DNA of 63,971 nucleotides, the filler included, from an uncultured bacterium (GTDB lineage: Bacteria > Hinthialibacterota > Hinthialibacteria > Hinthialibacterales > Hinthialibacteraceae): NCBI GenBank assembly GCA_964449065.1. It is 3 parts of 3 records of this genome, joined end to end, with 100 filler letters (N's around TTAATTAATTAA, not from the genome) between each part and the next. Parts side by side here need not be neighbours in the genome. Positions count along the whole stretch, not along the records: positions 1 to 23,279 come from CAYVAZ010000032.1; 2 more parts are not named here. One strand, written 5' to 3'. A program made the translations under genes and the position numbers. A model generated the notes under the pieces. It had not been told where the DNA came from. It did not search any database and worked only from the letters and a program-made list of their open reading frames with translations. Shown here one piece after another: positions 1-18,762 of the stretch. The stretch's first letter is position 1. Every line of letters begins with the position of its first letter.

Positions 1-20
1 GACGCTACATTGAACTCGAT

Positions 21-587
21 GCTTCAATGGAGCCACCGATGTTAATCGGTGGAAATTACCAATTTCCAAGTTCCAACGATCTTCGCGTGATTTTGCTTCA
101 ATGGAGCCACCGATGTTAATCGGTGGAAATTGCCTAGAGGAACTAGAGACAATCGGATCACTGGACCGCTTCAATGGAGCCACCGATGTTAATCGGTGGA
201 AATGATGGCGTTGAGTACGCGATTGCGTTTGGTGATATCGCTTCAATGGAGCCACCGATGTTAATCGGTGGAAATGAGGCGATCTCCGCTCGAGAAAATT
301 TCCGCGTCTCTGNNNNNNNNNNTAACGCGCGCGGGTTGTGTTTCCAATAAAAATCAATTTCGTCATCCTCTAATAGATCAGCGGCCAGTTGTTGTTCCCA
401 GTTTTCCATCCACGGTCCCAACGTGTACTGAACATGCTCCAACGACTGTTGCTCAATATTCGAAAACGTTGCACGGTCAAGCTCGCCAATCAGGTGCGGC
501 TGCACGCCAAAAATCGAGGCGATCTCCGCTCGAGAAAATTTCCGCGTCTCTGCTTCAATGGAGCCACCGATGTTAATCGGTGGAAAT
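21..587 (-). CRISPR. CRISPR array (type I-G/I-U-like repeat); probably continues beyond the window start
   Basis: Identical 36-bp repeat GCTTCAATGGAGCCACCGATGTTAATCGGTGGAAAT at 21-56, 95-130, 168-203, 240-275 and 552-587, with 36-38 bp spacers. Internal palindrome CCACCGAT/ATCGGTGG. The minus-strand repeat ends ATTGAAGC. N gap at 313-322. Confidence 0.97.
323..551 (-). other. Fragment of HK97-family phage portal gene inside the array (protospacer context)
   Basis: Translates ETRKFSRAEIASIFGVQPHLIGELDRATFSNIEQQSLEHVQYTLGPWMENWEQQL, the characteristic HK97 portal segment. 516-551 is identical to the spacer at 276-311. Confidence 0.85.
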
Positions 588-758
588 CGCCCCTAATCTT
601 AGGCACTGAATCGACTCGCTTTGCAGGGGCTTTTGCGAGCGACTCTTCCATATTCTATAACAGGAAATGTTATTTGTCCAGTTATTCACGTCATAACTCC
701 TTAATTATCAAAGATCGAGCGCTCCCTAGAGAAAACGCGCCATTCCACCGCTCGCAAA
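588..758 (-). promoter_or_regulatory. CRISPR leader
   Basis: Non-coding region between cas2 and the terminal repeat, AT-rich centre, two CGAGCG motifs. Confidence 0.75.
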
Positions 759-1049
759 TCAGACTACGACGGCAAACCGCTCCGATGGTTCATACGGTTT
801 ACCCAGCGCAACAATTTCTTTTTCCAACTCACCACCCGCAGGACCAACGGGAAACACCAACACTTGATCTTCGGTATGGTGAACGACTTCATCCAGTTTA
901 CTTAATAATAATACACGTTCTTTGTTAGAAAGGTCAGCGCGAAATACAGAAAGTTGCAAATGGTCGCCGAACCCGCGCATAATTCGAAATACTTTTCGTA
1001 ACCGTTTCGCGTCGCATACATCATAGGTAATAATATAGAGCCTTCGCAT
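759..1049 (-). CDS. cas2: CRISPR-associated endoribonuclease Cas2
   Basis: 96 aa; YIITYDV, GDHLQLSVF motifs; adjacent to cas1. Confidence 0.95.
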   Translation of the reverse strand: MRRLYIITYDVCDAKRLRKVFRIMRGFGDHLQLSVFRADLSNKERVLLLSKLDEVVHHTEDQVLVFPVGPAGGELEKEIVALGKPYEPSERFAVVV

Positions 1050-1055
1050 AGTTCG

Positions 1056-2756
1056 CTACCTGGTATTAAAGGTTGGCGGAGTGTTGATTTCTCCCGTTAA
1101 AAAACGGCCCAACAGCCGCGCTTGCACTTCAAGAACGCGGCGGTAACTGACCCGATAGTTGAAAACAGGGTGAGTAATCAGTGAATCCATACGCCGTTCA
1201 TACGCCATAATAAACCGTTTTCTTGCTTCTGGTTTGAGAGAGACGGCGTCTCCTGCTTTGATAAAATCGCCGACTGAGACTACTCCCGTGTTGATCGATG
1301 TAAGTACGGTTGAGTCGGCGATAATGGGCCGGAACGGTTCCATCAGATCAAGCGCAAGCGCTGGACGACCATAGCGGGGCTGATGGTAAAAACCTAAATA
1401 GGGGTCAAACCCCACGGTCAAGAGCGTCAGCGTCAAATCTTTAACCAATAATGAATAAGCCAATGACAACAAGGCATTCACCGGATCGCGGGGAGGCCGC
1501 CGATTCCGCGATTGAAAATCAAATTGCGGTTGGTCGGGTTGGCCTTCTTTGGGTTTGATCATATTTGAAAAGTGTTGAAAATAGATTCTTCCAGCGTTGC
1601 CCTCTACGCCCAATAACGTCTCTAACGAATCGACGGTTTGGACGCGGTCTTCCATGTGTTTTAGTTCATTGAGCGCGAGTTCAACATCATTAGTTGAATT
1701 TCTGCGCAGCAGAGTGCGTGAGTTTTGAATTTTATCGCGAACGAGAGTTTTGGCGATCAAAATAGCCGTTTCATTTTCTGACGCTCTATATTGCTGGCGG
1801 CGCAACTCGATGTTCTTATGGGGCATTCCAGCGCAAAGTCCGTTAAACCATCCGCCATACGAAAAATATAAAACGGGAATTTCACGCTGCATGAGTTGTT
1901 GAACGGCTTGCGTACTGATTTGAACGGAACCAAACAAACAGACGTGCGAGAGTTCCATCAATCGAATTTTCGCTACTATGCTTCCTTGTTTTTTGACAGT
2001 GAGTTCTTCGCCGGATTTTCCAACGTACCCCCCTTGTTCTTGTGCATAAAGCGGAGACGCGTCATCACGAGCCGGATATAAACGTCTTACCGCGTCATCA
2101 TCAGAACTGGCTTTTTTCTCTTGCGTAAACAGGGTTTCATCGGGAAGACAAATTCCGACGAGAGAACAAGCAGGACACTTGGGGCTATCAACTAACGGGG
2201 GCGGAGTTTGTCCTTTTTGAAATGTGCTTCGAAGTTCACGGGCGAGTTCATGGCATCGTTGCAGCAGCGGTTCATCCATCGTAACGGGAACACGGCGGCG
2301 GGATTGCGCGTAATAGATAACTCCGCTTGAGCAGCGATAGCCGTTCTCGCGCAAAACGATAGCCTGCGCTGCGAGTTGAACCCGTTCGGGTTCGTAGGAT
2401 TGGTCTTCATTATTGGGAATCGAACCGCGTTTGTATTCAACCGGAACCGCTTCGCCGTCTTCGGCTTCGATCAGGTCCATTTTGGCGATAAAACCCGCGT
2501 CGGGCGCAGAGAGAGTAACCGACCGCGCATGGATGGTCACGCTGTCGGCGTTATCCATCTGGTCGGCATCTGGCAGCGAACCGCCCGGCTGGTCAACGCG
2601 GCGGTGCTGACGGGTTCCGTCGAGCGTCCATTCGTTTTCGCGCCATTCCTGATCGACCCATTCGAGAGAACACAGACGGGGGCAATACGCGAACTCATTT
2701 AACATCCGCGCCGGGATGAGATCAGGTGGATTGATGACGCTCGTTTTCGAGTTCAT
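1056..2756 (-). CDS. cas1: Cas4-Cas1 fusion (type I-G adaptation)
   Basis: N-terminal Cas4 (YCPR, DLIE, EYKRG, CPACSLVGIC); C-terminal Cas1 (GVEGNA, RRPPRDPVNALLS, DPYLGFYH, LDLMEPFR). Confidence 0.95.
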   Translation of the reverse strand: MNSKTSVINPPDLIPARMLNEFAYCPRLCSLEWVDQEWRENEWTLDGTRQHRRVDQPGGSLPDADQMDNADSVTIHARSVTLSAPDAGFIAKMDLIEAEDGEAVPVEYKRGSIPNNEDQSYEPERVQLAAQAIVLRENGYRCSSGVIYYAQSRRRVPVTMDEPLLQRCHELARELRSTFQKGQTPPPLVDSPKCPACSLVGICLPDETLFTQEKKASSDDDAVRRLYPARDDASPLYAQEQGGYVGKSGEELTVKKQGSIVAKIRLMELSHVCLFGSVQISTQAVQQLMQREIPVLYFSYGGWFNGLCAGMPHKNIELRRQQYRASENETAILIAKTLVRDKIQNSRTLLRRNSTNDVELALNELKHMEDRVQTVDSLETLLGVEGNAGRIYFQHFSNMIKPKEGQPDQPQFDFQSRNRRPPRDPVNALLSLAYSLLVKDLTLTLLTVGFDPYLGFYHQPRYGRPALALDLMEPFRPIIADSTVLTSINTGVVSVGDFIKAGDAVSLKPEARKRFIMAYERRMDSLITHPVFNYRVSYRRVLEVQARLLGRFLTGEINTPPTFNTR

Positions 2757-2866
2757 GATCAGGTTTTTCCTTGCAAAGTACAATTAACCTTAACCCGAAA
2801 TAAAAAGAACCAATACTAAAGATGGCTTCTATATTTCAGACGCTGTAATCTATTAATAAATAATAA

Positions 2867-4018
2867 TTAATTCGATGTCAGCTCTCTGTGCTTGACATTC
2901 AACTCGGCGACAACTGCCGCCTTTTGTCCTTCCGTTTTCGCTGAAGTTTCAACCCGGAATTTCACTGTATAGGTTTTGTTGGAGTAAATGCCTTCAATGC
3001 CATCAACCCCCACTCGGAAGCGAGAACGTTCGGGCAGGTCGGGATTGTAGTAAAAGGTACTGCATTGAACAACTTGGGGTATCTCATTGGTAATCTTTTC
3101 CAAGTACCGTTTGACTTCTGGATGTTCTCCCGGCCAACCCGATTGTTCCAGCCGGGGTTCGCGTTTTTGTTCATTTGGCACTTCAGGCGGCAAGACTTTA
3201 TCCTTAACGGAACGAAACCGTTCATGGAATGTTTCGTGAAAGATTTGACCGGTAGGGGAAAGTTCAATGTAATCCACTCCATCGATTTCAATCCGCTCGA
3301 CCAGGCTTTCATATTTCTCGTCCCATTCATCTTCAAATTGAGAGGCTGGTGCGGGTTCTGGATTGCGTTCCAAATCAAACAGCATGCCGCTGGCGCGCAT
3401 CCAAACCTCAAAATCAAGCGATATAGGCATGGGTGGGAAAGCGATGATCTCACTAAATCGCTCATGCTTATAAAAAACGGGAACGCCAAGCGCCTGCCCC
3501 AGCAGCACGCCAATAGCGATTTGCGCTTTATATCCGCCAGTGGCATTAATGGCGCAAGTAGAAGCGGAACGCTCACGAATAATTTTGCACATTTCCTTCG
3601 TAAGATTACGCAGGCCTTTGGTGCGAAAACTCTTGGGGTCTTTGTCCTGCAAATCATTGACGGCGATTGCCTCAACCGGAGTGTGGCCTTTCTTTTGATA
3701 ATACCGCTTAAGGACCTCGGCAATACTGCAACCATCATCGGTATCGGAATGAAGAAAGAACAAGCCGCAGTTAGGGGGTACATACTGCTTTTCAATCATG
3801 CTGGCAATGGAGTTGATTTCCGCCCCGCAGAGGCGTTCCGTAGCAGGTATGTTAGCAAGTTCTCCAGCGACGCCAGTCCAGCTTTTGTTATCGTAAGATT
3901 CTGCTAATGGTCGCTGTTCATCAGATAGTTTGTTCTCGATCAATTCTTTCTTGAGGTTTTCCAGATTTGGGTAAAACAAACTAGTGCCAACCGTGCAAAT
4001 GAGGATATTGGGTTTCAT
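2867..4018 (-). CDS. APE2256-family CARF protein with wHTH and C-terminal RelE-like domain (Cami1-like cOA effector)
   Basis: CTVGTSL, GAEINS, HSDT, NATGGYKAQ, YKHERF CARF motifs; ~100-aa C-terminal extension; 383 aa. Confidence 0.75.
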   Translation of the reverse strand: MKPNILICTVGTSLFYPNLENLKKELIENKLSDEQRPLAESYDNKSWTGVAGELANIPATERLCGAEINSIASMIEKQYVPPNCGLFFLHSDTDDGCSIAEVLKRYYQKKGHTPVEAIAVNDLQDKDPKSFRTKGLRNLTKEMCKIIRERSASTCAINATGGYKAQIAIGVLLGQALGVPVFYKHERFSEIIAFPPMPISLDFEVWMRASGMLFDLERNPEPAPASQFEDEWDEKYESLVERIEIDGVDYIELSPTGQIFHETFHERFRSVKDKVLPPEVPNEQKREPRLEQSGWPGEHPEVKRYLEKITNEIPQVVQCSTFYYNPDLPERSRFRVGVDGIEGIYSNKTYTVKFRVETSAKTEGQKAAVVAELNVKHRELTSN

Positions 4019-4040
4019 GGCTAATCACTTTTTTAAAATA

Positions 4041-5171
4041 TCATTTCGATGGTAAATCCAGCAGGCGCTTGGCGATTTTCTTTTGCCGGTCTTTGAATAT
4101 AGATTTATTCTTATTTTTACCCTTTGTTGCATCTGGGTTTTCCAGCAATCCAGGAAAATGCTTTTTGACCAATTTTGATAAGTAGTCAATTGCGTCCCGC
4201 TGCGGGTCATTTTCGAGCCGGTCTAGCCATGCTTCAATGACGCCATCTCTTGTAAAAACATTTTTGTTGATTTCCCAATTTTCTTTCAAGGAAAGTTTAA
4301 TGATTTCTATTGCGAGCGCACTTTTACCTTTCAGTTGATCTTGCAATCGTCTTTCTTTTTGTTCTTGTTCAATAGCTTTTTGAAAATCCTTATCAGCATT
4401 TTCACTAGTTTCTTTATTCTGCGAAAACCGGCCAAAGCCAACGGATGTCTTCGCGCCTGCGCCGATCCATTCAAGCGAGTCTCTTAACCAAACAGCGGCT
4501 TGCTCACAATCCTTTTTGTCTTGGTCATTTTCGCCATGTTTAGGCAGTATCCCAAATTGGAAGGTGCATCCCGGCGCGACCACAAGAAAAGGTATCGGAA
4601 CAGGGCTGTACCAGTCGGCGGGAGGGTTCTTAACGGGATCACCACTATAGTATGGAGCATAATGCGGCGTCATGATATCGGCTTTGAGTTGAACCGGTTC
4701 AATGGGGATTGCATCAAGGAAAATTACCGAGCCGACATTTTTTTGATTGCCAATAATGCGATTGACATCTTGGTCGCTTGCTTTACACCATTGCCCTGCC
4801 CAAGCCCGTACCATCCCTTTGATCGAAGTCGCTGGTAGATAGGGAACACCCAACGTATGATGCCAGGCAAATCCATTTTCGACTGGATGCTCACGTCCCA
4901 AGCCGGTAACAAAGGCGCTGGCCAACTTATAGAAGATGGGGGTTCCTGATTGTTGTTTTATCAAGCGATATAGCCTTGCCCTGTAATCATCAAGATTTGC
5001 ACTTTGCGGATTGGATACTTCATTGATCCAATCCAGTTTGCCATTTTCTTTAAGTGACTTAAAGTTATCTTTCCACTGATTACAAAACTTGTCATACCAC
5101 AATCCAGCATTGCTTTTTGGATCAAACTTCTGTGGTATATGATTTTGAACGTCTTTATAAAGAGGTAACAT
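4041..5171 (-). CDS. cmr6: Type III-B RAMP Cmr6
   Basis: GLGREHPVENG, GVPYLPATSIKG, DIMTPHY, GAGAKTSVGFG. Confidence 0.95.
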   Translation of the reverse strand: MLPLYKDVQNHIPQKFDPKSNAGLWYDKFCNQWKDNFKSLKENGKLDWINEVSNPQSANLDDYRARLYRLIKQQSGTPIFYKLASAFVTGLGREHPVENGFAWHHTLGVPYLPATSIKGMVRAWAGQWCKASDQDVNRIIGNQKNVGSVIFLDAIPIEPVQLKADIMTPHYAPYYSGDPVKNPPADWYSPVPIPFLVVAPGCTFQFGILPKHGENDQDKKDCEQAAVWLRDSLEWIGAGAKTSVGFGRFSQNKETSENADKDFQKAIEQEQKERRLQDQLKGKSALAIEIIKLSLKENWEINKNVFTRDGVIEAWLDRLENDPQRDAIDYLSKLVKKHFPGLLENPDATKGKNKNKSIFKDRQKKIAKRLLDLPSK

Positions 5172-5605
5172 TATTTTTCCTCACTTGAATCTTTCTGGGG
5201 ATTTTCTTTCAAGTAGGCGGCGGCAAATTTCTTAAGCCAACTCAAATATGCCAACGCTTCCGCTTGGGCGTATAGATAGGCGTCTTCATCATTCTTAGTA
5301 ATTTGCTGCATGAGGTTTATATCATCGTTTGATTGATAAGGCGAACATTTGTTCGACTTACATAGCCAATCTTCTATTTGACTGTATAAAAGCCAATGAG
5401 CATCTTCCTTTTTCCCTTTTGCCGCCGCGAGCAAGGTTGCCATCGCTTGTCCAAACCCATTCTGTAAAATGGTCGCGGGCAAGCCTTTGACATAAGAAAC
5501 ATAGTGACCGTATTTATTTTCTTTTTTGGTTTTTTCAATTTGATCATACGCATGTTTGGCGCGTTGCATGTCGATGGTTTGATTCTCTGTTGTTTGATTA
5601 TTCAT
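5171..5605 (-). CDS. cmr5: Type III-B small subunit Cmr5
   Basis: RAKHAY, LPATILQNGFGQA, WLKKFA; position between cmr4 and cmr6. Confidence 0.93.
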   Translation of the reverse strand: MNNQTTENQTIDMQRAKHAYDQIEKTKKENKYGHYVSYVKGLPATILQNGFGQAMATLLAAAKGKKEDAHWLLYSQIEDWLCKSNKCSPYQSNDDINLMQQITKNDEDAYLYAQAEALAYLSWLKKFAAAYLKENPQKDSSEEK

Positions 5606-6398
5606 GCTCGCCTCCATTGTGAAATGCAATCGAAAACCAACCCTGGCCGACTGTCTCATTGCCGCCGATTTGAATGTAGGGTTTTTGATTCAATTCGTCT
5701 TTAATCTTCTTGGTTCCGTTACTTTTAGAATCCCGGTCTGCCATGACAAAATACATGAGTGTATCCGGCGGAAGATATTCCTCGTACCATAAATTCCTGC
5801 TTTGTTTCTTATCATCCAATTGATTGCGCGCTTGGACCGGCAATGCGTATTGAGCGAACCAGGAAAAATCATCATTGGAGAGAAAAACGAGTTGGTCTTC
5901 AAGACGATTTTGAGCTTCAGAATGTGCGATCAGTTTTTTGACTAAATTGAAAGCGTCTGGTAAATTACCTTGATGCTGAAAGTTTCTTTCTTCCAGAAAA
6001 AGCGGTTTATCTTTATCCCCTTTGCCAAGATATTTCTTTGACTCAATTTTCGGTAACTCTGCACAACCATTTAAGCCATTTCGTTTCAGATCACGTTGAA
6101 GACGTTCAATCAGCATGGGGCAGGTTGCCCATTTATAGGCGCTGGTCAGGCTGCGCACCGGCAGCAAAAGCAACCTCGCATCTGAAATCAAAACGCTTCC
6201 AGCGTTGTCATGTTTGCCAAACAGGGATTCATCATTTCCGATCCGGTCTTTCAACGCCCCCTTCATACTGGAACCCGCAATAAAGGGGTAGCCTGTTGAA
6301 GACTCTCTGGCAACCGGATTGTCTATGACTCCGACATCCTGATCGCTTCCTGGGTGAATAAATGTTTCTGCTAACAAACCTACCAGTAGTGCACTCAT
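5598..6398 (-). CDS. cmr4: Type III-B RAMP Cmr4
   Basis: IHPGS..GVIDNPVARE (catalytic Asp retained), GSSMKG, LWYEEYLP, QIGGNETVGQG. Confidence 0.95.
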   Translation of the reverse strand: MSALLVGLLAETFIHPGSDQDVGVIDNPVARESSTGYPFIAGSSMKGALKDRIGNDESLFGKHDNAGSVLISDARLLLLPVRSLTSAYKWATCPMLIERLQRDLKRNGLNGCAELPKIESKKYLGKGDKDKPLFLEERNFQHQGNLPDAFNLVKKLIAHSEAQNRLEDQLVFLSNDDFSWFAQYALPVQARNQLDDKKQSRNLWYEEYLPPDTLMYFVMADRDSKSNGTKKIKDELNQKPYIQIGGNETVGQGWFSIAFHNGGEHE

Positions 6399-10712: not shown

Positions 10713-12420
10713 CGTTATCTCCTTCTTCCTTGTCTAACCAGGTAATTTCACTTAATTTATAAGGATCATTGCGCTGTTCTTTTGGAACTCTCGAATCGAT
10801 TAAAATACATCGGCGAGTAGGCCGGTTATAACGTTGGGCTTTTTCTATCACTCGCTGGACGATGACACCCATGATGGTGGTTCCACCAGTCAGATTGCCA
10901 ACTACTTCATCCGCGTCAATGAGCATTTTTTTATGATTTTCAAGAATTCTAATGATTTCTTTTTCATCATACTGATTGGGATTATTCATAACAAAACACT
11001 GTACATTTTTTTCTTGAAACTCCGCATGACTGATGGCTTCCTGAATGTATGGTTCGGATTGAGATGAACATATCACAAGGCAATAATCCGGGTTTGTTTG
11101 CTTGACCGCGGAATAAAGCACGCCAGGGCTCAAACCTTGCGGCGTGATTAAGAGACGTCCTTTGCCGCCGCCAAAACGTGGGAACTCAATTTCATTATTA
11201 CGTAACCGCTCAAAAGACTCTCTGATTCTGTCTAATTGACTGGGCGGGAATTTCATTCTCTGCTCACGCATTCCATGATGATGCAGAGAATTACGGAGTT
11301 CTGATAACTGGCTCCAGAAATCACCCCATGTTTTTATTTTGGCGTCATCATATTTTTCTTGAGATAGAGACTTTAATAGCCCCAGTTGCCGCTCTGCTTT
11401 GATTCTCTCATCCCGTTTCAACCAGTTCGAATGATCTCCAGTATGAAAAACAACCCATGAAACTACCCATTCGCGCATTAAACCTAAAGCAAGAGGCATT
11501 TGACTACGCTCTAAATACAGATCAATCAAATTGGCCTGACGCTCTAATTCATTCTTGTCCAAACAAGTTGGCGAGTTTGATCCAAACCGTCCAATATCTC
11601 TCTGAATTGCTTCGTTTAAATCATCCGCCAGTGGAACATGTTTTTTTAATAGTTCTACAAATTCATCATTCAAAACTAATTGAAGCGTAGTGCTGATTTC
11701 TCCTATCTCGATTGGCATGCCTGATTCATAAGCATAGGTAATCTCTTCAAAAGGTTTCTTCAATTTATCAAAGGGAGACGCTTTTTTATGAATATCTTGA
11801 TCATCATTTTTCAATCTCGCATCCTGATGAATTTTTTTTGAATGTTTATCAATCATCTGCTGCATGGCCCGCGCCGATCCCGTTTCACGAAACATGCGGA
11901 TGGCATAGAACCATTCCGGCAATTCTAAAAGTGGTTGAAGATTGAGAATGGGTCGAGGCGATTCATAATCCGAAACTTCCAACTTGCCATAATACGCCCC
12001 TTTGATCTCAATATCTTTCAATGAACGTAAATACAAAGCCAACGCATATAAAATAAACGGAAAGTGTCGAAACCCTTGTGTTACATCCAGCGTGATCGAT
12101 GAGCCTTTGGGAAAACGAATGGCGACTTTCTCTAGAATTTCGCTGATCTCAGATTCATCTTTGCCATCAGGGATATCAATTTTCTCCAGAGAAAATTCAT
12201 TCGCCTCTCGCTCAAAAACTGGCCAGGATGAATTTAACGCCACTTTGGTAACCAAAACCAAGATGGAATCGATGGGATCGGGATGCAATTGTTGAGTCAA
12301 GTACTTGATTGTCGCGAGCGGGGCCAAATGCGCCTGATAGACAGTATCGTTGATTCGATATGGATACTTTGTATCTGCTTTTCCTTTTCCAAGCGCGGTT
12401 AAAAATATGTGCTGATTCAT
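10699..12420 (-). CDS. csx1: Csx1-like CARF-HEPN ribonuclease with an additional C-terminal CARF-like domain
   Basis: FLTALG, IPDG, DVTQGFRHFP, YYGKLE; HEPN RNSLHH; C-terminal TPQGLSPG...NLTGGT. Confidence 0.8.
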   Translation of the reverse strand: MNQHIFLTALGKGKADTKYPYRINDTVYQAHLAPLATIKYLTQQLHPDPIDSILVLVTKVALNSSWPVFEREANEFSLEKIDIPDGKDESEISEILEKVAIRFPKGSSITLDVTQGFRHFPFILYALALYLRSLKDIEIKGAYYGKLEVSDYESPRPILNLQPLLELPEWFYAIRMFRETGSARAMQQMIDKHSKKIHQDARLKNDDQDIHKKASPFDKLKKPFEEITYAYESGMPIEIGEISTTLQLVLNDEFVELLKKHVPLADDLNEAIQRDIGRFGSNSPTCLDKNELERQANLIDLYLERSQMPLALGLMREWVVSWVVFHTGDHSNWLKRDERIKAERQLGLLKSLSQEKYDDAKIKTWGDFWSQLSELRNSLHHHGMREQRMKFPPSQLDRIRESFERLRNNEIEFPRFGGGKGRLLITPQGLSPGVLYSAVKQTNPDYCLVICSSQSEPYIQEAISHAEFQEKNVQCFVMNNPNQYDEKEIIRILENHKKMLIDADEVVGNLTGGTTIMGVIVQRVIEKAQRYNRPTRRCILIDSRVPKEQRNDPYKLSEITWLDKEEGDNDADD

Positions 12421-12484
12421 TGTGGAGCTCCTATATTTATGAAACTGGAACCGAGTTGTCCAGATTTATGGGCCCTGCCTCTTT

Positions 12485-14029
12485 TTACATATTGTGCAGA
12501 GAGGCGAATATCCCAAATCCACAATGCCGCCCCGCGCCAATGGCAATAGGGCCGGGGACTTTAAGCCCATCTTTGAAACGGAGGGTGAGATGCACAGCGG
12601 TTTGAGTAAGTAAATGATCGGGACGGAAGTAACCCGCTGGTTTTCCGTCTTTACCATATTTGTGTGAAGAGTAAGACTTGCGAAATCTTGAGAATGTGCT
12701 CCATTCAAAATCACAGGCCTGTTCAATGCCGGATTGGAAAAGGACTTTTTCGATCAGTTTTTGTGTCTTTCCCGGTTTGTGATCGTCAAAACCGGGTAGG
12801 ATTACTGGCGTGACACTAGCCCATTCATTCGCTTCACTTGTATAACAACGAGTGACTCCATCCCCTTTAGGCGGCATAGGAACAAGAATCGGAGGTTCAT
12901 CGCCGCCAAACTCAACGCCCTTGATTGGATCTGGCCTAAGCGCCGTCCCTGCCAGTCGTCGAGTAATTTGATCAAGCCATTCTTCATCGCCCACAGGCGC
13001 AGAAATCATCACGCGCCTTACTCCAGGATCGGCGTATTCATGACCTACAGAAGGCAGCGGTATATAGGAGAGTTGACGATGATTGGATCGGTTGCCGTTG
13101 TTAATGTGTCCAGCGATGTATGTTTCAGCCCAGTCTTCGTCAACACCAGAAGGGCGATTGCCAGGAAGGCGCATCGCCTCAATTGCAAGATGACGCACCA
13201 TGCCCGCGATATGAATGAGCTTTCGATGAGGATATCGAAAACGCGACCCATTCGTATTGCGAAGTTCAAAAATGCGGCAAGGACGCTGGAGAGGCTGATT
13301 TTGACAACGATACTGAATGACGTCAAACACGCGCAAAGGTGGAACAGGACGAAAGCCGTCTTTTGATACGCGGTTCAAAAAATCAGTGTGCTTGCGGATG
13401 AGATCGTCAAGCGTTCCTGGTTTTGGCGTACGAAGTGGAACTCCGCCAAGGGGAGAGGGACGCCAGCGCAAGCCTGGCAATGCAGCAACTTGCTCGCGCG
13501 TGATTATACTGGCGTCGCCAACTGCCATATCGACGCCCCAACCCAGGTGCGTAATGGATCGCGCAGCACTCGTTAATATATCCAGATATGGACATTGACC
13601 GTCGGGGAGGAGATATAAATATTGAATAGCATCGCAATGTTGGTTTGTGTAATCCAATCGGGTAGACAATATGGTTTTCATTGTTTTCAAGTCAATGGGA
13701 CGGTGTGGCTTGATAGGTTCACTCCCTCTAGCCCATACATGTGCTGGAGAATCCCAGTCGTTATTTGGTACGGCGATTTGAAACGGAATACCAAAGTGAT
13801 AAGTTGGCGTGACAATAAGAACCGGGGGAATCATTTCGATCCACGTTAGCATTGGCTTAGCCCAATCGATAAACTGTGATTCCCGCCACTGGGAGGCAGC
13901 GGAATCGACAAGCGACTGAAAAAGTCGTAGTGGTGATGGAGGCCATTCAGGTTGACTATCGTCTCTTTGTCCGTGGAAAGCAGATGCCGGATCAAGAAAA
14001 CGAATGTTAATGCAAAGAAATTCTGACAT
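12485..14029 (-). CDS. csb2: Type I-G Csb2 (Cas5/Cas6-like fusion)
   Basis: FHG...EWPPSPLRLFQSLV, VPNND, LGWGVDM, YIPLPSVGH, WASVTP, GPIAIGAGRHCGFG. Confidence 0.93.
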   Translation of the reverse strand: MSEFLCINIRFLDPASAFHGQRDDSQPEWPPSPLRLFQSLVDSAASQWRESQFIDWAKPMLTWIEMIPPVLIVTPTYHFGIPFQIAVPNNDWDSPAHVWARGSEPIKPHRPIDLKTMKTILSTRLDYTNQHCDAIQYLYLLPDGQCPYLDILTSAARSITHLGWGVDMAVGDASIITREQVAALPGLRWRPSPLGGVPLRTPKPGTLDDLIRKHTDFLNRVSKDGFRPVPPLRVFDVIQYRCQNQPLQRPCRIFELRNTNGSRFRYPHRKLIHIAGMVRHLAIEAMRLPGNRPSGVDEDWAETYIAGHINNGNRSNHRQLSYIPLPSVGHEYADPGVRRVMISAPVGDEEWLDQITRRLAGTALRPDPIKGVEFGGDEPPILVPMPPKGDGVTRCYTSEANEWASVTPVILPGFDDHKPGKTQKLIEKVLFQSGIEQACDFEWSTFSRFRKSYSSHKYGKDGKPAGYFRPDHLLTQTAVHLTLRFKDGLKVPGPIAIGAGRHCGFGIFASLHNM

Positions 14030-14040
14030 GGCGGACTCCA

Positions 14041-15318
14041 CTATTTTTTAGAAGTAATACTAATTGCTACACCATTCTTAACTTCAAGATCGACTTTCGC
14101 TCCGACTTTAATGATAGTTTCAAATCTCGCAATATCTTTTCCCTTTTTGATCACAGTTTCTGAATTCGTGCCAATTTCAAAATCTTTCTTCTTGAACTTG
14201 ACTTTAAACGCGTTGTTTTCACTATCAACTGATATCACTTCACTACCGTTCATTTTTTCCGGTTTTGCCGCATTAGCTTTCTCGGCGATCGAAGCATCAA
14301 ACGGCTTTTCTTCCCCTGATTGGATACCGAACTGATTCATTGCTTCATGTGCGTATTCAACGGCATCTTTGTGGAGAAGAGTATAATCAACTCGAGTCCC
14401 ATCGATGTTGACCAGTTTAAACTCACATCCTTTATCCGTGTCGGGAACAAGATTACATCCTTGTCTAAGGAAAGGATCTATTGGAGCTGTAAGTGAAACG
14501 AGAGAAAGACCAAGGATATACCGACGCAGTGACTTCGTCTTGTCCAAATTTAAACTCCCACTGGCATCAAGGACAGAAAGTCGTCGAAGCGCAGCAAGCG
14601 CGATTGTAGTATCCCGACGTATATAGCCGTTGGGCGCCAGTTGTACTCCACCGGGAGCTTTTGACTCAAGCGCGTTCGCAAAACCATCTTTTGATTCCGC
14701 CCCAGGTAGGATTTCCAGTTTCGCAAGGTCGATGGTCATTTGAGTTAGGAAATTTGCTGATCGTGTGAGGTTTCGAACATTAAATGCACGGATCGTGGAA
14801 GAGAAGAGCCGTGGAATTTTCGCTTGCGTATCGCGCGAATCCCATACTCCAAACACTAAGGAAGTGGGGGCAATTTTAGCTAAATTTTCATAATTACCGC
14901 GTTGCACCTCTTGAAATGCTTTTCTCAAATCTTTTTCAAATGCTGAGCAGCGTATTATCGCATCAGCGGCTCTATGATTGGCATGGAGCCAATTAATTCG
15001 AATACCTTTAGATGGAAATATAACAAAGTTTTGTGGTACAAGTTCAGAGTATTTATTATCCGCAAAAAATGGCTCGATTCGATTCGCTTGTGACCCCACA
15101 CTGTCCACAAGGCACACGTTTGTCCCATCAGAAAAAAAGTCGATATTGTACCCTCCTTGGAATTTTTCCTTGTCTTTATCAGAGCCTGGTTGAGCCGCAT
15201 AAGTAGCTGGGAAAAATACGCCATCAGCTCCTTCGATGGGAATCAAATGCTCACGAATTACAAGTGCAGCAGGTCCGTTAGATTGAAACCATTCATCATA
15301 CTTCGTTATATCAATCAT
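14041..15318 (-). CDS. cas7: Type I-G Cas7 (Csb1) with C-terminal extension
   Basis: FFPATYA, VDSVGSQANRIE, HRAADA, PTSLVFGVWDSR, LRQGCNL. Confidence 0.93.
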   Translation of the reverse strand: MIDITKYDEWFQSNGPAALVIREHLIPIEGADGVFFPATYAAQPGSDKDKEKFQGGYNIDFFSDGTNVCLVDSVGSQANRIEPFFADNKYSELVPQNFVIFPSKGIRINWLHANHRAADAIIRCSAFEKDLRKAFQEVQRGNYENLAKIAPTSLVFGVWDSRDTQAKIPRLFSSTIRAFNVRNLTRSANFLTQMTIDLAKLEILPGAESKDGFANALESKAPGGVQLAPNGYIRRDTTIALAALRRLSVLDASGSLNLDKTKSLRRYILGLSLVSLTAPIDPFLRQGCNLVPDTDKGCEFKLVNIDGTRVDYTLLHKDAVEYAHEAMNQFGIQSGEEKPFDASIAEKANAAKPEKMNGSEVISVDSENNAFKVKFKKKDFEIGTNSETVIKKGKDIARFETIIKVGAKVDLEVKNGVAISITSKK

Positions 15319-16147
15319 TGTTTTCTCCTAACATTTCTAAATATGCGTAATTTAGCGCTGAATATTGACCACGATTCGTTATTGAAGTCCGGTAGCATGA
15401 TGTAAACCTATCTGTAATAAAACCAGTCATTGCTGCTGATGCAATAAATGGGGAATATGGTCTATGCCATGTATAGTATTTGAATTTATCTCGGCTATTG
15501 TTAACTTTAGGTCTAAATCGTTGTAATCCGATTGCAGCAAACAATTCGGTCGCTGGAGAAGATTCAACTTCATAACTTTGTTCATTTGGTGAAAACCCAA
15601 CATCCAACGCATTCCACGCAGGACCAGGATCAAAACCAAATCTACCTTTTTGAAGCAGGCGTAGTGAGAACAATCCAGTTAATTGTTCTAAAGATATCTT
15701 AATTAATTGCTTTTCTAATCCACGCATTAATGAAGACCAAATTCTTAACGATGTTTGTTGTCCAGACCAAAAGTTCCAAGGAGGATTAGGAGAAATTTTA
15801 ATTACACCATTGCTCGTGGTGATGCGCGTCCAAGCATCAAGAATGAATTCAGTTCTTGCCCCATTTCCAAAATTAAAAGCGAGTGGTGCAATTATAGGTT
15901 TGATTTCTAAACTACTGCATTCTAAACGTTCAATTGCGCTTGGTGGATTAGCCACTAGCATTTCCAATAGTTCTATAAGCGTCCCGTTCTTGCACTCCAT
16001 GCGGAACTCCCCTGCATCCTCAGAAAACCACCCTTCGGCGCCGGGCCAGAGGCGGTCGGCGAGTTCGAGCAGGCCGCAGCAGGCGAAAAACTGGCCAGGG
16101 TTGGTTACATCGACTTTCACGCGAATGTTTGGTTCGTGAGCATTCAT
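15311..16147 (-). CDS. Type I-G short large subunit (Cas8g2/Csb3-like)
   Basis: NPGQFFACCGLLELA, WSGQ, LDVGFSPN, ELFAAIGLQRFRP; lies between cas3 and cas7. Confidence 0.8.
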   Translation of the reverse strand: MNAHEPNIRVKVDVTNPGQFFACCGLLELADRLWPGAEGWFSEDAGEFRMECKNGTLIELLEMLVANPPSAIERLECSSLEIKPIIAPLAFNFGNGARTEFILDAWTRITTSNGVIKISPNPPWNFWSGQQTSLRIWSSLMRGLEKQLIKISLEQLTGLFSLRLLQKGRFGFDPGPAWNALDVGFSPNEQSYEVESSPATELFAAIGLQRFRPKVNNSRDKFKYYTWHRPYSPFIASAAMTGFITDRFTSCYRTSITNRGQYSALNYAYLEMLGENND

Positions 16148-18762
16148 GACGCGGCCTCCTTTTCTTCTTCGTCATCACTGACGGATGGGTTAGCGCTGGC
16201 GGCGTAATCAGCCGCGCGTAATAGCGATTCCAAATACGCCAGCCCCCATCGCCCGTATTTGCGCTGTAAGCGGGCGAAGCGACGCATGGCTTCGATAGAA
16301 ACGCCTGTTGATTCCTCATTGGAATATTCAGGGTCGTATGCATTTTCCATTGGGAAATGGGGCCTTGCATACCCGTGATGAGAAGCGATCAAGTGAAGAA
16401 CGACATCCTGCATATCTGGATTTAATTTTTCATACTCGGCGTAGAATGGTTTTTCAGGATTCAAAATATCCAACAATGAGCCAAACTCGTGGCGGTAATT
16501 CGGGCAACTATTTAGTCCGACCCATTTTTTGTCTGACTTTGCGTAAGGCTCATTGGGATTGGGGTTGCCAATGCTTCGTTGCCAGATTTCTCGCTGTTTT
16601 CCTACGTCATGCCATTTTGCCGCGAGAGTAACGGCGTTTTTCAGTTCTTCGGTTAGAACAAGTTTATCTACATTATTTTTCGCGATTTCTTCAACTTGTT
16701 TGATATGGCTGCCTAAACGAACGAGAACCGACGATGTTTTGGTTAAATCGTCGTCAGACGAACGCGGACGAACATACCAATACCAGAAGCGCTTGGGAGA
16801 TGAATCATCATCATCACCGTCCCGCTCATCCGCATCAGGTTTTGCGTCAATCGTGCGAACCAGCCTCATCCCTATTGGAGGCTCTGCTTTGCGTGACGCG
16901 CTCCATTTCCTCTCACGACGATATTGTTTCTTTTCATCCTCCCATTGATCAGAAATATCATATTGAAGGGCTTCATTGTGTTGAGTATTGCCATCTAACG
17001 TTCCTGACTTGGTCAGGCCGCCAATGGATGGAGGCAGGAGAACTGTTGCGTTTGTGATCTCTTTTTTAATCGCTTCTTTCTTTCTGTCTTCGGTTAGTGT
17101 TCTAAGTGTAGTGATAAATATTTCATTTTGTACGCTGATGATCCATACGGGGGATTTTGGGTTGCTTTTTGCCAGCATCAGCAAGGAATCTGCGATCCGG
17201 TCGCTCTGGTCGCGTAAAAGTTCATGCGGCTTGAGCGGAAAATCCTCCAGCAGGTCAACCGGCGGATAGAGTTCAAGCAGCTCCTCACCAATGATTTCGA
17301 CTTCCTCCCGCCAAGCAACGTGTGTATCTGGAGGCTGCCATTCAGAGATTCCGTGCAGGTATGGCTCAACAGGCGGACGGCCCGGCATCTTGCCGCGGAT
17401 CGTCGTTAGAGACCATGCGTCAAACAAAATGTCCGTAACGGGAAGAATGGTTGGCGCAGGGGTAAAGGCGTCGGCTTTGTCGTTCGCGTCGAGGCCATTC
17501 AATGCCAACGGACTTGCATCAAAATTATTTTCTACTCTCGGTAATTTCTGAATGAGTTCTAAGGTTTTGTGTCTTTGTTTATCATATACCTTCTCTTTGA
17601 TTTCCTTTGTTTTTTTATCGAGTTTTCCGAACGATTGAGGATGTACGACATCAATCTTCGCACTTCCTTCGCCATACCGATTCACGCGGCCCAGGCGCTG
17701 CGCCATGCTGTCAAACGGCGTGAGGTCGCAAACCATGTGATCGGCGGAGATGTCGATGCCAACTTCACCTGCGGAGGTACAAATGAGATATACCGTCTCA
17801 CCTGGATCAGGATTTTGGAGAAAACTCTTAAATTCAATTGTTTTAACCAGTTCGTCGCGTTCCTTTCCCCGCATGGTTCCTGTCAGCAATATGGTTTTCT
17901 TCTTTGTCTTCTTTTGTAGTTCCTTTTCAATCTCCACAACATCTTTTACTTCCTTGGCGAACACAATTACGGCGACGTTTTGGTCTTTGTATACTTCAGC
18001 GGCCTTTACAATCTCAGAAGGTACTTTATTTTCAGCATCAACCGATATCAGGCTTAACTGCTTATGCGCCTCAATCCTTTTCTTGACCTCTAGATGCGTA
18101 TAGTCGTCAGGCGTGAGAGAAAACGGCAGATCATCTCTTCCGTTTCGTCCCGTCGCAGTCAACTGCATTACGCGTAGATTAGGCCAATGTAAATGACTTT
18201 TATCTTTGCGTTCGCGTTCCTGCTCTGATTCGATGGCGTCAATCAGTTCCTGAAAGGCTGGTTCAAGATGCGCTTCATCGTGAATGAGCAGCGCGTCTTG
18301 CCCGAGAAAGCCTGCGAACAGGGGACGGGTTTTGAATCCCGCCCGATAGCCGTTAAACAAGAGGCGGCTGCCAATCATATCCACTGTGCCGCAGATAATT
18401 GCAGGCCGTGAAGGATCGGCTGACCAATCACGATTGTCAGCAAATTGGCCTCGTAGGGTGCTTATGCCAAGGTTTTCGATTCCAATATTTTTAGCATTGT
18501 CGCGTAGATTTATTGCTTCGTTCGTTGTTTGGTCTACGACAGTGCGTCGATTCACAACATAGACAAGCCGCCGCGGGACATCCAATTTGTTAGCAAGAGC
18601 AATTAACCAAATCGCGATGACGTTTGTTTTTCCCAATCCGGTTGGTAAGTTGCAGCAATGAGGTATGTCCTGCAGTTCAAAGCGCCGATAAAGTTTTTCT
18701 TGCCAAGGGAATGGTTTGTGTTTTGTCAGCTGATAAAATGCATCGCAAAAGTCCATGTTCAT
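16144..18762 (-). CDS. cas3: Type I-G Cas3 helicase with C-terminal HD nuclease
   Basis: PFPWQ, PTGLGKT, YVVNRRTVVDQ, DEAH, QRLGRVNRYG; C-terminal WHDVGK, RHE, SHHG, RAAD. Confidence 0.95.
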   Translation of the reverse strand: MNMDFCDAFYQLTKHKPFPWQEKLYRRFELQDIPHCCNLPTGLGKTNVIAIWLIALANKLDVPRRLVYVVNRRTVVDQTTNEAINLRDNAKNIGIENLGISTLRGQFADNRDWSADPSRPAIICGTVDMIGSRLLFNGYRAGFKTRPLFAGFLGQDALLIHDEAHLEPAFQELIDAIESEQERERKDKSHLHWPNLRVMQLTATGRNGRDDLPFSLTPDDYTHLEVKKRIEAHKQLSLISVDAENKVPSEIVKAAEVYKDQNVAVIVFAKEVKDVVEIEKELQKKTKKKTILLTGTMRGKERDELVKTIEFKSFLQNPDPGETVYLICTSAGEVGIDISADHMVCDLTPFDSMAQRLGRVNRYGEGSAKIDVVHPQSFGKLDKKTKEIKEKVYDKQRHKTLELIQKLPRVENNFDASPLALNGLDANDKADAFTPAPTILPVTDILFDAWSLTTIRGKMPGRPPVEPYLHGISEWQPPDTHVAWREEVEIIGEELLELYPPVDLLEDFPLKPHELLRDQSDRIADSLLMLAKSNPKSPVWIISVQNEIFITTLRTLTEDRKKEAIKKEITNATVLLPPSIGGLTKSGTLDGNTQHNEALQYDISDQWEDEKKQYRRERKWSASRKAEPPIGMRLVRTIDAKPDADERDGDDDDSSPKRFWYWYVRPRSSDDDLTKTSSVLVRLGSHIKQVEEIAKNNVDKLVLTEELKNAVTLAAKWHDVGKQREIWQRSIGNPNPNEPYAKSDKKWVGLNSCPNYRHEFGSLLDILNPEKPFYAEYEKLNPDMQDVVLHLIASHHGYARPHFPMENAYDPEYSNEESTGVSIEAMRRFARLQRKYGRWGLAYLESLLRAADYAASANPSVSDDEEEKEAAS

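Follow-up and report, generated by a model that had tools for sequence, protein, structure and literature searches.

A type III-B cassette nested in a type I-G CRISPR-Cas operon of an uncultured Hinthialibacterota bacterium, with Csb2 as the likely source of crRNAs for both effectors

The window, which is the whole stretch of 63,971 nt analysed (filler included), carries a composite CRISPR-Cas locus on a 23-kb contig. Fourteen ORFs, all on the minus strand, lie between 759 and 18762 in the order cas3g-cas8g2-cas7g-csb2-[CARF/HEPN csx1-like, cmr1, cas10, cmr3-6, Cami1-like CARF]-cas4g/cas1g-cas2, followed by a leader and an array (Table 1). All 14 proteins exceed the NCBIfam curated cut-offs in profile searches, and every gene from cas3g to cas2 is intact. 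Adjacent genes overlap by 1 to 62 nt. The sole gaps are of 64, 22, 83 and 6 nt, and the first three lie at or beside the module borders. The gene order, the common strand and the tight coupling noted in a preliminary description of this DNA are thereby borne out.

Table 1. Features of the composite locus and second-study contigs that cover parts of it
Feature	Position	Strand	Basis
CRISPR array, 5 identical 36-nt repeats, spacers 36-38 nt	21..587	-	repeat search
Foreign 193-nt phage portal gene fragment within array	323..515	-	PF04860 Phage_portal, E 1.2e-23, profile positions 218-290
Leader	588..758	-	between cas2 and first repeat
cas2, 96 aa	759..1049	-	TIGR01573 29.7 bits (cut-off 24.5), PF09827 56.1 bits
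cas4g/cas1g fusion, 575 aa	1056..2783	-	NF049935 776.7 bits (cut-off 560)
Second CARF protein, 383 aa	2867..4018	-	TIGR02619 71.1 bits (cut-off 37.45), PF09651 119.5 bits
cmr6, 376 aa	4041..5171	-	TIGR01898 147.5 bits (cut-off 51.1)
cmr5, 162-aa ORF	5171..5659	-	PF09701 125.3 bits, TIGR01881 61.2 bits (cut-off 27.9)
cmr4, 266 aa, backbone RAMP	5598..6398	-	TIGR02580 182.3 bits (cut-off 87)
cmr3, 380 aa	6395..7537	-	PF09700 235.8 bits, TIGR01888 118.3 bits (cut-off 100.4)
cas10/cmr2, 649 aa	7534..9483	-	TIGR02577 158.5 bits (cut-off 79.4)
cmr1, 410 aa	9480..10712	-	TIGR01894 66.3 bits (cut-off 28.65)
Csx1-like ancillary effector, 573 aa	10699..12420	-	TIGR02221 CARF 84.6 bits (cut-off 76.25), residues 83-190
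csb2, 518-aa ORF, Cas5-Cas6 fusion, proposed crRNA endonuclease for both effectors	12485..14041	-	TIGR02165 212 bits (cut-off 45)
csb1/cas7g, 425 aa, Cascade backbone	14041..15318	-	TIGR02570 145.3 bits (cut-off 38), PF09617 129.8 bits
cas8g2, 278 aa, short large-subunit variant of type I-G	15311..16147	-	TIGR04106 144.5 bits (cut-off 125)
cas3g, 872 aa, helicase + C-terminal HD nuclease	16144..18762	-	TIGR02621 646.6 bits (cut-off 400), E 1e-193
X4 record 23 (second study)	552-5393		covers this part of window
X3 record 21 (second study)	11346-12624		covers this part of window
X4 record 26 (second study)	11720-13378		covers this part of window

The HD domain of Cas3g occupies residues 686-847. 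Cas8g2 found no match in the Pfam search. Csb2 matches profile positions 2-490 of TIGR02165, and its database relatives begin 4 codons later than the window ORF. Csb2 itself contains a Cas6-like domain.

Within the III-B cassette, Cas10 shows Cmr2_N from residue 8, a palm2 domain at residues 377-505 and the GGDD cyclase motif, and a domain search of the 649-aa protein found no HD domain; it is predicted to be HD-less and cyclase-competent. The real start of cmr5 is probably later than the ORF start, since residue 27 is the first to align with the profile. The Csx1-like protein has an N-terminal CARF, a central HEPN-type R-x4-H motif and a C-terminal second CARF/Csx20-like region, where residues 441-527 give a weak Card1-CARF match. 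R376, N377, L379 and H381 are invariant in an alignment of three sequences, and the orthologue in G033, another genome of the phylum, matches Csx20. The closest solved relative of the second CARF protein by sequence is 8PHB, titled Cami1 (profile E 3.2e-18). The AlphaFold model of the second CARF protein (pLDDT 87) aligns over residues 4-265 with Cami1 8PHJ at VIA Z 20.2, and with the ring nucleases Sis0811 and Sso1393 at VIA Z 18-19. The earlier label Cami1-like is supported for residues 1-265, which are Cami1-like or ring-nuclease-like, and not for the C-terminal ~115 residues.

The source genome is metagenome-derived, 86.67% complete and in 515 contigs. Contigs from such a bin may falsely join two loci into a chimera, and a chimeric scaffold join is indeed present at the array end of this one. 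However, the contig has no N between 588 and 23279, and contigs of a second study, ~94% identical, span both module junctions. The junctions are thus bridged by independently assembled contigs from two studies: the nested order does not stem from misassembly, and we give the chimera almost no credence.

The array is cut by the contig end. The scaffold join interrupts it at 276-552, with N at 313-322, and a spacer is duplicated (276-312 equals 516-552). The portal fragment, of which the rest of the assembly has no second copy, runs straight on from the leader-proximal spacer 516-551. For this spacer alone a target is visible; the crRNA made from it would be sense-oriented relative to the portal ORF. 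Against the portal mRNA such a crRNA would serve I-G, not III-B, which counts against shared use. Within the leader, a single promoter-like sequence (680-652) agrees with the consensus at 10 of 12 promoter positions, and such sites are no more frequent in the region than expected by chance.

The transcribed repeat is predicted to fold (-11.8 kcal/mol) into an 8-bp stem closed by a 4-nt loop, with 4 nt before it and 12 nt after it. The stem is followed by 4 nt and then the 8-nt tail ATTGAAGC, which matches the '-TTGAAGC' motif described for myxobacterial I-G repeats, themselves 36 bp long and hairpin-forming (PMC11237760). The repeat of Thioalkalivibrio sulfidiphilus is also 36 nt; its Csb2 was reported to cut 4 nt 3′ of the stem to give an 8-nt handle, and H503A abolished cleavage (Shangguan et al. 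2022, PMC9638904). The layout of the window repeat agrees with this cleavage geometry, and the corresponding His, part of the C-terminal GAGRH motif, is conserved in every one of 22 aligned relatives. The T. sulfidiphilus enzyme has a high affinity for the cut 3′ hairpin (KD 43-55 nM) and is thought to remain in Cascade, which counts against a handover of crRNA to Cmr (PMC9638904).

The genome has a single copy each of Csb2, Cmr4 and a Cas10 of this kind. It had been noted that cas6 is missing; a stand-alone Cas6 was found neither in the locus nor genome-wide with five models (PF01881, TIGR01877, PF10040, PF08798 and PF09618). The searches are not fully sensitive, since the PF08798 control was positive in just 1 of 14 control genomes, and at 86.67% completeness in 515 contigs a Cas6 or a further array may be unassembled. 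Cmr might instead receive its crRNAs by way of another enzyme: a Cas6 in the unassembled 13%, a host RNase, or Csb1/Cas7g as a second processing enzyme. A cyanobacterial III-Bv system without cas6 reportedly uses RNase E. A preprint claims that Csb1 and Csb2 process pre-crRNA redundantly (10.1101/2022.08.19.504415).

Sister loci bear on this alternative from both sides. The closest cassette in the phylum belongs to G008 and is 36-52% identical. It is preceded by an array of its own, whose 37-nt repeat is of another kind and weakly structured, and a search for Cas6 in that genome (85% complete) found none. Therefore a route other than hairpin-specific cleavage by Csb2 may serve the Cmr clade of G008 and the window. 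TIGR01877 found canonical Cas6 above cut-off in 0 of 35 phylum genomes, three of which give weak, sub-threshold Cas6-like matches. Yet the five Cas6 models matched nothing in the present genome, and the sole array beside cmr is built of Csb2-type repeats. Moreover, a half-size Csb2 persists in III-B loci devoid of I-G effector genes. In G033 (94% complete) a half-size Csb2 (TIGR02165 positions 277-492, 75 bits) precedes cas4g/cas1g, cas2, a 40-repeat array of I-G-type repeat and cmr1-6, and neither Cas7g nor Cas6 was found in this genome. Three metagenome loci (L127, L129 and L130) combine cmr1-6, a CARF gene, csx15 and a short Csb2, and L127 and L130 also carry I-G-type repeats. Family matches for csx15 and Csb2 were run for these two loci; the short Csb2 of L129 was recognized by tblastn and ORF layout.

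A precedent for the pairing comes from Haliangium ochraceum, whose III-B Cmr was reconstituted with csb2 as a Cas6 substitute and a mini-array; in E. coli this system conferred immunity and produced cOA signalling that depended on target RNA (Steens et al., 10.1101/2023.06.23.546230). With these points against it, supply by another enzyme seems rather improbable to us.

Cmr4 is above cut-off in 7 of the 35 phylum genomes, all seven of which have Csb2, against 8 of the 28 genomes without Cmr4; the one-sided Fisher p of 0.00096 overstates the link, because related genomes are not independent. Arrays of at least 3 repeats were absent from the fetched flanks of seven III-B loci from G005, G007, G010 and G015. 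Among other species, 77 of 80 Csb2 loci are without type III genes, and the cassette carfA-cmr1-cas10-cmr3-4-5-6 stands alone in G008, L117, L120, L121 and L126. The direction proposed earlier, a complete Cmr set inserted into an I-G operon, is supported on both counts. The same nested order was looked for in relatives, and metagenome contig L118 (cas3g-csx17-cas7g-csb2, short csb2, carfA-cmr1-6) shares the I-G-then-Cmr layout of the window.

The two systems could still be mere neighbours, with Cmr idle or working from other arrays and no spacer sharing in practice. The interval between csb2 and cas4/1 is an insertion hot spot: it holds an IS66 element in L067, a Csm-like module in L071, and five unrelated genes in T. 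sulfidiphilus (PMC9638904). The same genome also has a second array with a related repeat, on contig C442, and this array or an unassembled one could supply Cmr. The single shared array of the preliminary description is thus not strictly right for the genome. In the C442 repeat, however, a single compensatory base-pair change leaves the hairpin intact and the tag is the same; this repeat would still be a Csb2 substrate. In addition, all eight cassette genes are intact with GGDD kept in Cas10, the ~94% identical strain of the other study has the same junctions, and type III modules recur beside Csb2 in independent lineages (window, L118, L071, L030, G033 and L127-L130). We regard mere proximity as quite improbable.

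A self-contained Cmr cassette inside the I-G operon, reliant on Csb2-cut crRNAs of the shared array, is the best-supported explanation of the sequence data. Its support is comparative, from the conserved His, the repeat geometry, the joint occurrence in phylum genomes, the half-size Csb2 and the H. ochraceum precedent.

In Pyrococcus furiosus, a stand-alone Cas6 reportedly serves all effector complexes from shared arrays, and Csb2 is not known there; what was once called 'type I-G' in this species is now I-B. The III-B system of Marinomonas mediterranea is said to use crRNAs of the co-resident I-F system, processed by Cas6f. The P. furiosus Cst locus with its Cmr module resembles the window in having type I and III-B at one locus (PMC4666368). 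In M. mediterranea, type III gives redundancy against viruses that escape type I, and the two systems are described separately, in contrast to the nested operon here (PMC5576922). Cas6 and the adaptation module are 'often missing' from myxobacterial III-B clusters, whose genomes frequently carry I-G as well, and seven 'hybridized' loci are mentioned; a nested I-G/III-B operon, as in the window, is not among the features described in that III-B account (PMC11237760). T. sulfidiphilus shares with the window the I-G gene set, the 36-nt repeat, the catalytic His near the C-terminus and extra genes between csb2 and cas4/1. Its insert, however, comprises toxin-antitoxin and xpf-like genes instead of a Cmr cassette, its Cas8g is the large, Csx17-type protein and not the short Cas8g2, and a III-B locus, also present in that genome, is reported as a separate one (PMC9638904). 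H. ochraceum is like the window in having Cmr1-6 without a Cas6 of their own and Csb2 as pre-crRNA processing enzyme, yet its cmr operon (Hoch_1313-1323) carries SAVED-CHAT and caspase genes, and its effectors are proteases, whereas those of the window are Csx1-like and Cami1-like proteins (10.1101/2023.06.23.546230). The Csb2-Cmr partnership is thus already in laboratory use, and the concept is less novel than first assumed; the packing here is unusually tight.

We infer every biochemical step of the shared-crRNA mechanism as follows. Cas4g/Cas1g and Cas2 would extend the array with new spacers next to the leader, and the array would be transcribed from the minus strand. The C-terminal Cas6-like domain of Csb2 would cut the repeats 4 nt 3′ of the hairpin to leave an 8-nt 5′ tag, as judged from the T. 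sulfidiphilus biochemistry and the repeat shape. The crRNAs would enter the I-G Cascade (Cas7g, Cas8g2 and Csb2), which would recruit Cas3g for DNA destruction, or alternatively, once trimmed at the 3′ end, enter Cmr. Cmr bound to a complementary transcript would cleave it via Cmr4, and Cas10 would produce cyclic oligoadenylate that activates both CARF proteins.

It is likely, in our judgement, that a complete type I-G operon took up a self-contained type III-B cassette between its csb2 and cas4/cas1 genes, forming a composite locus in which Csb2-cut crRNAs feed both effectors. Guide RNAs cut by Csb2 are the most likely supply for each of them. If this is true, an RNA-sensing III-B system and a DNA-cutting I-G system would run on guides from one enzyme, Csb2.

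The type I-G operon and the type III-B (Cmr) cassette form a single co-oriented run on contig C32, as the preliminary description had claimed. Fourteen minus-strand ORFs fill the locus in the order Cas3g, Cas8g2, Csb1/Cas7g, Csb2, a TIGR02221 CARF protein, Cmr1, Cas10/Cmr2, Cmr3-6, a TIGR02619/APE2256 CARF protein, Cas4g/Cas1g and Cas2. All 14 score above the NCBIfam curated cut-offs, and the Pfam matches are concordant. What places the locus in type I-G is the layout of Cas3g, the presence of the effector genes for Cas8g, Csb1 and Csb2, and the Cas4-Cas1 fusion accompanied by Cas2.

Coordinates of the features, with profile matches of the type I-G proteins. C32 positions are those of the window; other positions are those of the fetched loci (L numbers), taken from genomes (G numbers, G000 being the window's own) or metagenomes.
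Feature	Source	Position	Match or content
Nested I-G and III-B run	C32	759-18762, minus strand	14 ORFs
Cas3g	C32	residues 4-857; HD match residues 686-847	TIGR02621, 646.6 bits; helicase first, C-terminal HD
Cas8g2	C32		TIGR04106, 144.5 bits, above cut-off
Csb1/Cas7g	C32		TIGR02570, 145.3 bits, above cut-off
Csb2 (Cas5-Cas6 fusion)	C32		TIGR02165, 212 bits, above cut-off, match end to end
Cas4g/Cas1g fusion	C32		NF049935, 776.7 bits
Cas2	C32		TIGR01573, 29.7 bits
Bridging contig, X4 record 23	C32	552-5393	
Bridging contig, X4 record 26	C32	11720-13378	
Bridging contig, X3 record 21	C32	11346-12624	
Scant or zero cover in runs X3 and X4	C32	parts of 13651-18200	
Scaffold join inside the array	C32	276-552	ten N at 313-322; 37 nt of 276-312 repeated at 516-552
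Array of C442	G000, L007	1-527	seven 36-nt repeats
Type II-C locus of C117	G000, L006	1622-8760	cas9 (1064 aa), cas1, cas2, roughly 35 repeats
Repeat of C435	G000, L008	3499-3662	three 38-nt copies, ~73-nt spacing
Array upstream of separate Cmr cassette	G008 C144, L092	9074-9327	37-nt repeat
Start of large I-G array	G010 C100, L114	1-290	identical 72-nt units
Half-size Csb2	G033 C95, L098 (also L093)	1215-2147	284-310 aa
Short and full-length csb2	G007 C141/C168, L112 and L111	3-1803 and 2700-3356	
I-G-then-Cmr locus	metagenome, L118	93-18069	
Csm-like module after csb2	Planctomycetota, L071	3683-8981	csb2-[cas10/csm1, csm2, csm3, csm4, CARF]-cas4/1-cas2
Csm-like module after cas4/1	Planctomycetota, L030	11968-17181	csb2-cas4/1-[cas10, csm3, csm4, CARF]-cas2

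Adjacent genes of the locus overlap by 1-62 nt. Gaps occur at only four places: 64 nt separate csb2 from the CARF gene, 22 nt separate cmr6 from the second CARF gene and 83 nt separate that gene from cas4/1, while the fourth gap measures 6 nt. The first three are the larger ones and therefore delimit the inserted block. A consensus scan, uninformative on operon structure, gave no excess of promoter-like sites (28 versus 31.4 +/- 5.6 expected) or of terminator-like sites (23 versus 21.6 +/- 3.9 expected). C32 (window positions 1-23279), on which the whole locus lies, is one of the 515 contigs of a metagenome-assembled genome of 5.22 Mb, with a completeness of 86.67% and a contamination of 2.78%; the other parts of the window are further contigs, set apart by runs of N. 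Both module junctions are spanned by Logan contigs, about 94% identical, of a second study of hot-spring metagenomes (sets X3 and X4); contigs of the probable source study, identical in sequence, span them as well. The nested gene order is no assembly artefact.

All six Cmr proteins (Cmr1, Cas10/Cmr2, Cmr3, Cmr4, Cmr5 and Cmr6) score above their curated cut-offs and are free of internal stops. The translated Cas10 has 649 aa, starts with Cmr2_N, and carries GGDD within its palm2 domain at residues 377-505; no HD domain was detected in it. Therefore the expected output of the complex is RNA cleavage and cOA signalling, not DNA cleavage by Cas10.

The two CARF proteins differ in how far they can be named. 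The first, of 573 aa, has an N-terminal CARF domain (TIGR02221, 84.6 bits versus a cut-off of 76.25) and a second CARF/Csx20-like region. Its residues 376-381, R-N-S-L-H-H, form a putative HEPN-type R-x4-6-H stretch kept in 3/3 aligned orthologues, and no HEPN family model matches it. Judged from these motifs, "Csx1-like" would be a fair label. The second protein, of 383 aa, belongs to a highly conserved family, with 60-74% identity to many planctomycete and other metagenome proteins. The "Cami1-like" label given to it earlier holds for the CARF part. Its top solved relative by sequence is 8PHB, titled Cami1 (profile E 3.2e-18), and its model (pLDDT 87) aligns over residues 4-265 with Cami1 8PHJ (VIA Z 20.2, with an rmsd of 4.8 over 236 residues). 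Two ring nucleases, Sis0811 and Sso1393, score Z 18-19, within about 1-2 Z units of Cami1. For the C-terminal ~115 residues a RelE-like domain would be putative: for residues 270-383 structural alignments give no cover, the PDB no sequence match at E <= 10, and the Atlas no usable hit, and the single-sequence model is poor (pLDDT 58). Csx1 and Cami1 were reported together in 54 loci (PMC11229360), and the pairing is therefore ordinary.

The leader of 171 nt lies between cas2 and the first repeat. The array shows 5 identical 36-nt repeats and reaches past the first base of the contig; its interior holds the scaffold join. Within it, 193 nt are non-CRISPR, and their minus strand together with a spacer codes for a 76-residue stretch of phage portal protein (PF04860, E 1.2e-23). 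The portal fragment continues straight from the leader-proximal spacer, which, from its position, is the newest. The spacers of C32, those of a further array on contig C442 and the portal fragment have no other match in the genome, so that no self-target or prophage source is found there. Probably the assembler merged phage reads with the array through the leader-proximal spacer, yielding a chimera with the targeted phage. If so, the join would record recent spacer uptake from a phage in the same sample. A crRNA of the portal-matching spacer would read in the sense of the portal ORF itself; it could therefore guide targeting of the DNA, and could not pair with portal mRNA.

In type III-B, crRNA maturation usually, though not always, relies on a stand-alone Cas6. 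Here such a Cas6 had been declared missing, and the search agrees. No Cas6 was found in the locus, nor at E <= 1 in the 86.67%-complete genome, with PF01881, TIGR01877, PF10040, PF08798 and PF09618; the PF08798 control was positive in just 1/14 control genomes. The further claim of a single shared array needs qualification, as C442 holds a second array, though one of the same repeat family. Five positions of its repeat differ from that of the window, one difference being a compensatory stem pair, and the 8-nt tail is as in the window repeat. C442 is a 3.6-kb contig without cas genes, and its array goes past the contig start. It may be the far end of the window array, a second array, or the array of a co-binned strain.

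Two other repeat loci were considered as sources of Cas6 and rejected. The type II-C cas9 locus of C117 has an integrase next to it. The GC of its contig, 60.5%, exceeds the 99th percentile of a bin whose overall GC is 47.5%. The locus is probably foreign to the bin, by contamination or recent transfer, and is irrelevant to type III. The repeat of C435 amounts to just three copies beside an IS1380 transposase, running past the contig end, and may represent either a third mini-array or a repeat tied to the IS.

Csb2 is the candidate for processing in this locus. Its C-terminus carries a GAGRH motif whose His is invariant in 22/22 sequences (the window Csb2 and 21 relatives of 55-66% identity). 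From the C-terminal place of the motif, this His would be the equivalent of H503 of T. sulfidiphilus Csb2, the residue for which catalysis has been shown. The T. sulfidiphilus enzyme cleaves the 36-nt repeat unaided, loses cleavage upon H503A substitution, and stays active as the C-terminal domain alone; cleavage occurs 4 nt 3′ of the hairpin and produces an 8-nt 5′ handle, and the enzyme binds the cleaved hairpin with a KD of about 43-55 nM (PMC9638904). A search for solved relatives returned no meaningful match for the full-length Csb2 profile or for a half-size form from another genome of the class, G033.

The transcribed window repeat is predicted to fold into 4 nt, an 8-bp stem, a 4-nt loop and a 12-nt tail, at -11.8 kcal/mol. 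An Rfam scan of window positions 1-1200 returned no match to a CRISPR repeat family (E <= 0.01). In its 36-nt length, its hairpin, and a predicted cleavage 4 nt 3′ of the stem that would leave an 8-nt tag, the repeat resembles the I-G repeats described in PMC9638904 and PMC11237760. Cut 4 nt beyond the stem, the window repeat would give the 8-nt tag ATTGAAGC. Cmr complexes recognise an 8-nt repeat-derived 5′ tag. All 10 repeats examined from Csb2-associated arrays have the identical architecture, with compensatory changes in the stem.

The Cmr side of the locus was followed through the 35 species genomes of the phylum in the collection. Cmr4 scores above cut-off in 7/35, and all seven contain Csb2, which is found in 8/28 of the others (one-sided Fisher p = 0.00096, a value inflated by relatedness). 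TIGR01877 Cas6 exceeds its cut-off in 0/35. Within the available flanks, the seven III-B loci of G005, G007, G010 and G015 have no array of at least three repeats, and every I-G array of these four genomes carries the Csb2-type repeat. In G010 the large I-G array begins with three to four identical repeat-spacer units, from either spacer duplication or an assembly effect.

G008, of the same family, carries CARF-cmr1-cas10-cmr3-4-5-6 in the identical order (36-52% identity) on a contig separate from its I-G genes, and the cassette is therefore taken as a mobile unit. The I-G end of G008 is an ordinary csb2-cas4/1-cas2-array, and Cas6 was not found in its genome. Upstream of the G008 cassette, which is the closest one in the phylum to that of the window, lies a small array of its own, whose repeat differs from that of the window, is weakly structured and lacks a strong hairpin. 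This array is the chief evidence against exclusive dependence of such cassettes on Csb2.

The I-G side was surveyed by a Csb2 profile scan of species-representative genomes, from which 80 loci were kept. Window-like Cmr genes occur in 0/80 by tblastn with the window proteins (E <= 1e-5; many loci are shortened by contig ends). Type III genes of any kind occur in 2/80, according to tblastn with three Cas10 queries and to family models applied to 38 ORFs from 14 of the loci; the uninterrupted csb2-cas4/1 arrangement is therefore the common state. The two exceptions, from two Planctomycetota genomes, are compact Csm-like modules in I-G operons, with cas10 of 549-610 aa, and Cas6 was not detectable in either host genome. 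The csb2-cas4/1 gap is a recurrent landing site: that of locus L067 holds an IS66 element, and that of T. sulfidiphilus five unrelated genes (PMC9638904).

The nested order to be sought in relatives, absent from the 80 representative loci in its window-like Cmr form, does have a counterpart in metagenome locus L118. There, cas3g-csx17-cas7g-csb2 is followed by two small ORFs, a short csb2 and CARF-cmr1-6; its Cmr proteins share 31-53% identity with those of the window. L118 is a second, independent I-G-then-Cmr fusion, on the other I-G variant (Csx17). Its short Csb2 stands directly upstream of the CARF gene, in the place occupied by full-length Csb2 in the window.

Short forms of Csb2 beside Cmr genes recur. 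The half-size Csb2 of G033 (94% complete) covers profile positions 277-492 only, at 75 bits versus a cut-off of 45; it keeps the His-containing C-terminal motif and comprises the Cas6-like C-terminal domain only. The same contig carries cas4g/cas1g (761 bits), cas2, a 40-repeat Csb2-type array, a TM1812/Csx20 CARF gene, cmr1-6 and a TIGR02619 CARF gene, and neither Cas7g nor Cas6 was found in G033. By its gene content, G033 would in effect have a III-B system with the Cas6-like half of Csb2 and without the I-G effector. In G007, whose genome has three Cmr4 loci, a short csb2 appears to lie beside full-length csb2, before cas4/1, as pieced together across two contig ends. The metagenome loci L127, L129 and L130 hold cmr1-6, a CARF gene, csx15 and a short Csb2, by family matches for L127 and L130 and, for the short Csb2 of L129, by tblastn and ORF layout. 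Csb2-type repeats are present in L127 and L130 too, together with a Cas4/Cas1-like match that is weaker and divergent. A whole-library search returned 1932 short-form relatives at E <= 0.001, many of 275-320 aa and covered nearly end to end.

From these comparisons and from the biochemistry of other species, the best explanation is probably that Csb2-cut crRNAs from the shared array serve both the I-G Cascade and Cmr. The use of Csb2 to serve a Cmr complex is an idea with precedent. What the locus shows is closer physical packing of this known partnership, which does not make it a new kind of system; some added interest is that type III modules are repeatedly associated with Csb2 or its free-standing half. 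In the literature searched, with the myxobacterial hybrid-locus supplements of PMC11237760 outside the search, no paper was found to describe Cmr genes nested within an I-G operon or a half-size Csb2 beside Cmr.

A broader reading, to which we give slightly less than even weight, is that the Cas6-like half of Csb2 is the native crRNA endonuclease of a whole clade of III-B systems and that the window is an intermediate in the exchange of modules between I-G and III-B. Three states are seen. In one, the Cmr cassette sits in a full I-G operon, from which it would borrow Csb2, the adaptation genes and the array (window, L118). In a second state a free-standing half-size Csb2 lies beside the full-length one (G007, L118). 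In the third the I-G effector genes are gone, leaving III-B with half-size Csb2, cas4g/cas1g and I-G-type repeats (G033), in the company of L127 to L130 with short Csb2 beside Cmr. If this is true, type III crRNAs would have a third general source in Csb2-type processing, in addition to canonical Cas6 and host RNases.

Type III systems without Cas6 and adaptation genes are common, and the source of their guide RNAs is often left open. Myxobacterial III-B clusters, for instance, often lack both in I-G-rich genomes (PMC11237760). The locus and its relatives offer a concrete, testable answer for one lineage, namely the Cas6-like domain of Csb2, and csb2, the repeat and cmr1-6 make a compact, naturally co-adapted set for reconstituting III-B without a separate Cas6. 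The half-size Csb2 beside Cmr in other genomes suggests that the dependence is old and widespread, and no accident of a single locus. In M. mediterranea, type III was reported to back up a type I system (PMC5576922). In the present locus, two effectors, one that degrades DNA and one that signals when triggered by RNA, are placed downstream of a common supply of one leader and one spacer-uptake machine, and one spacer record could then drive two defences with different escape requirements.
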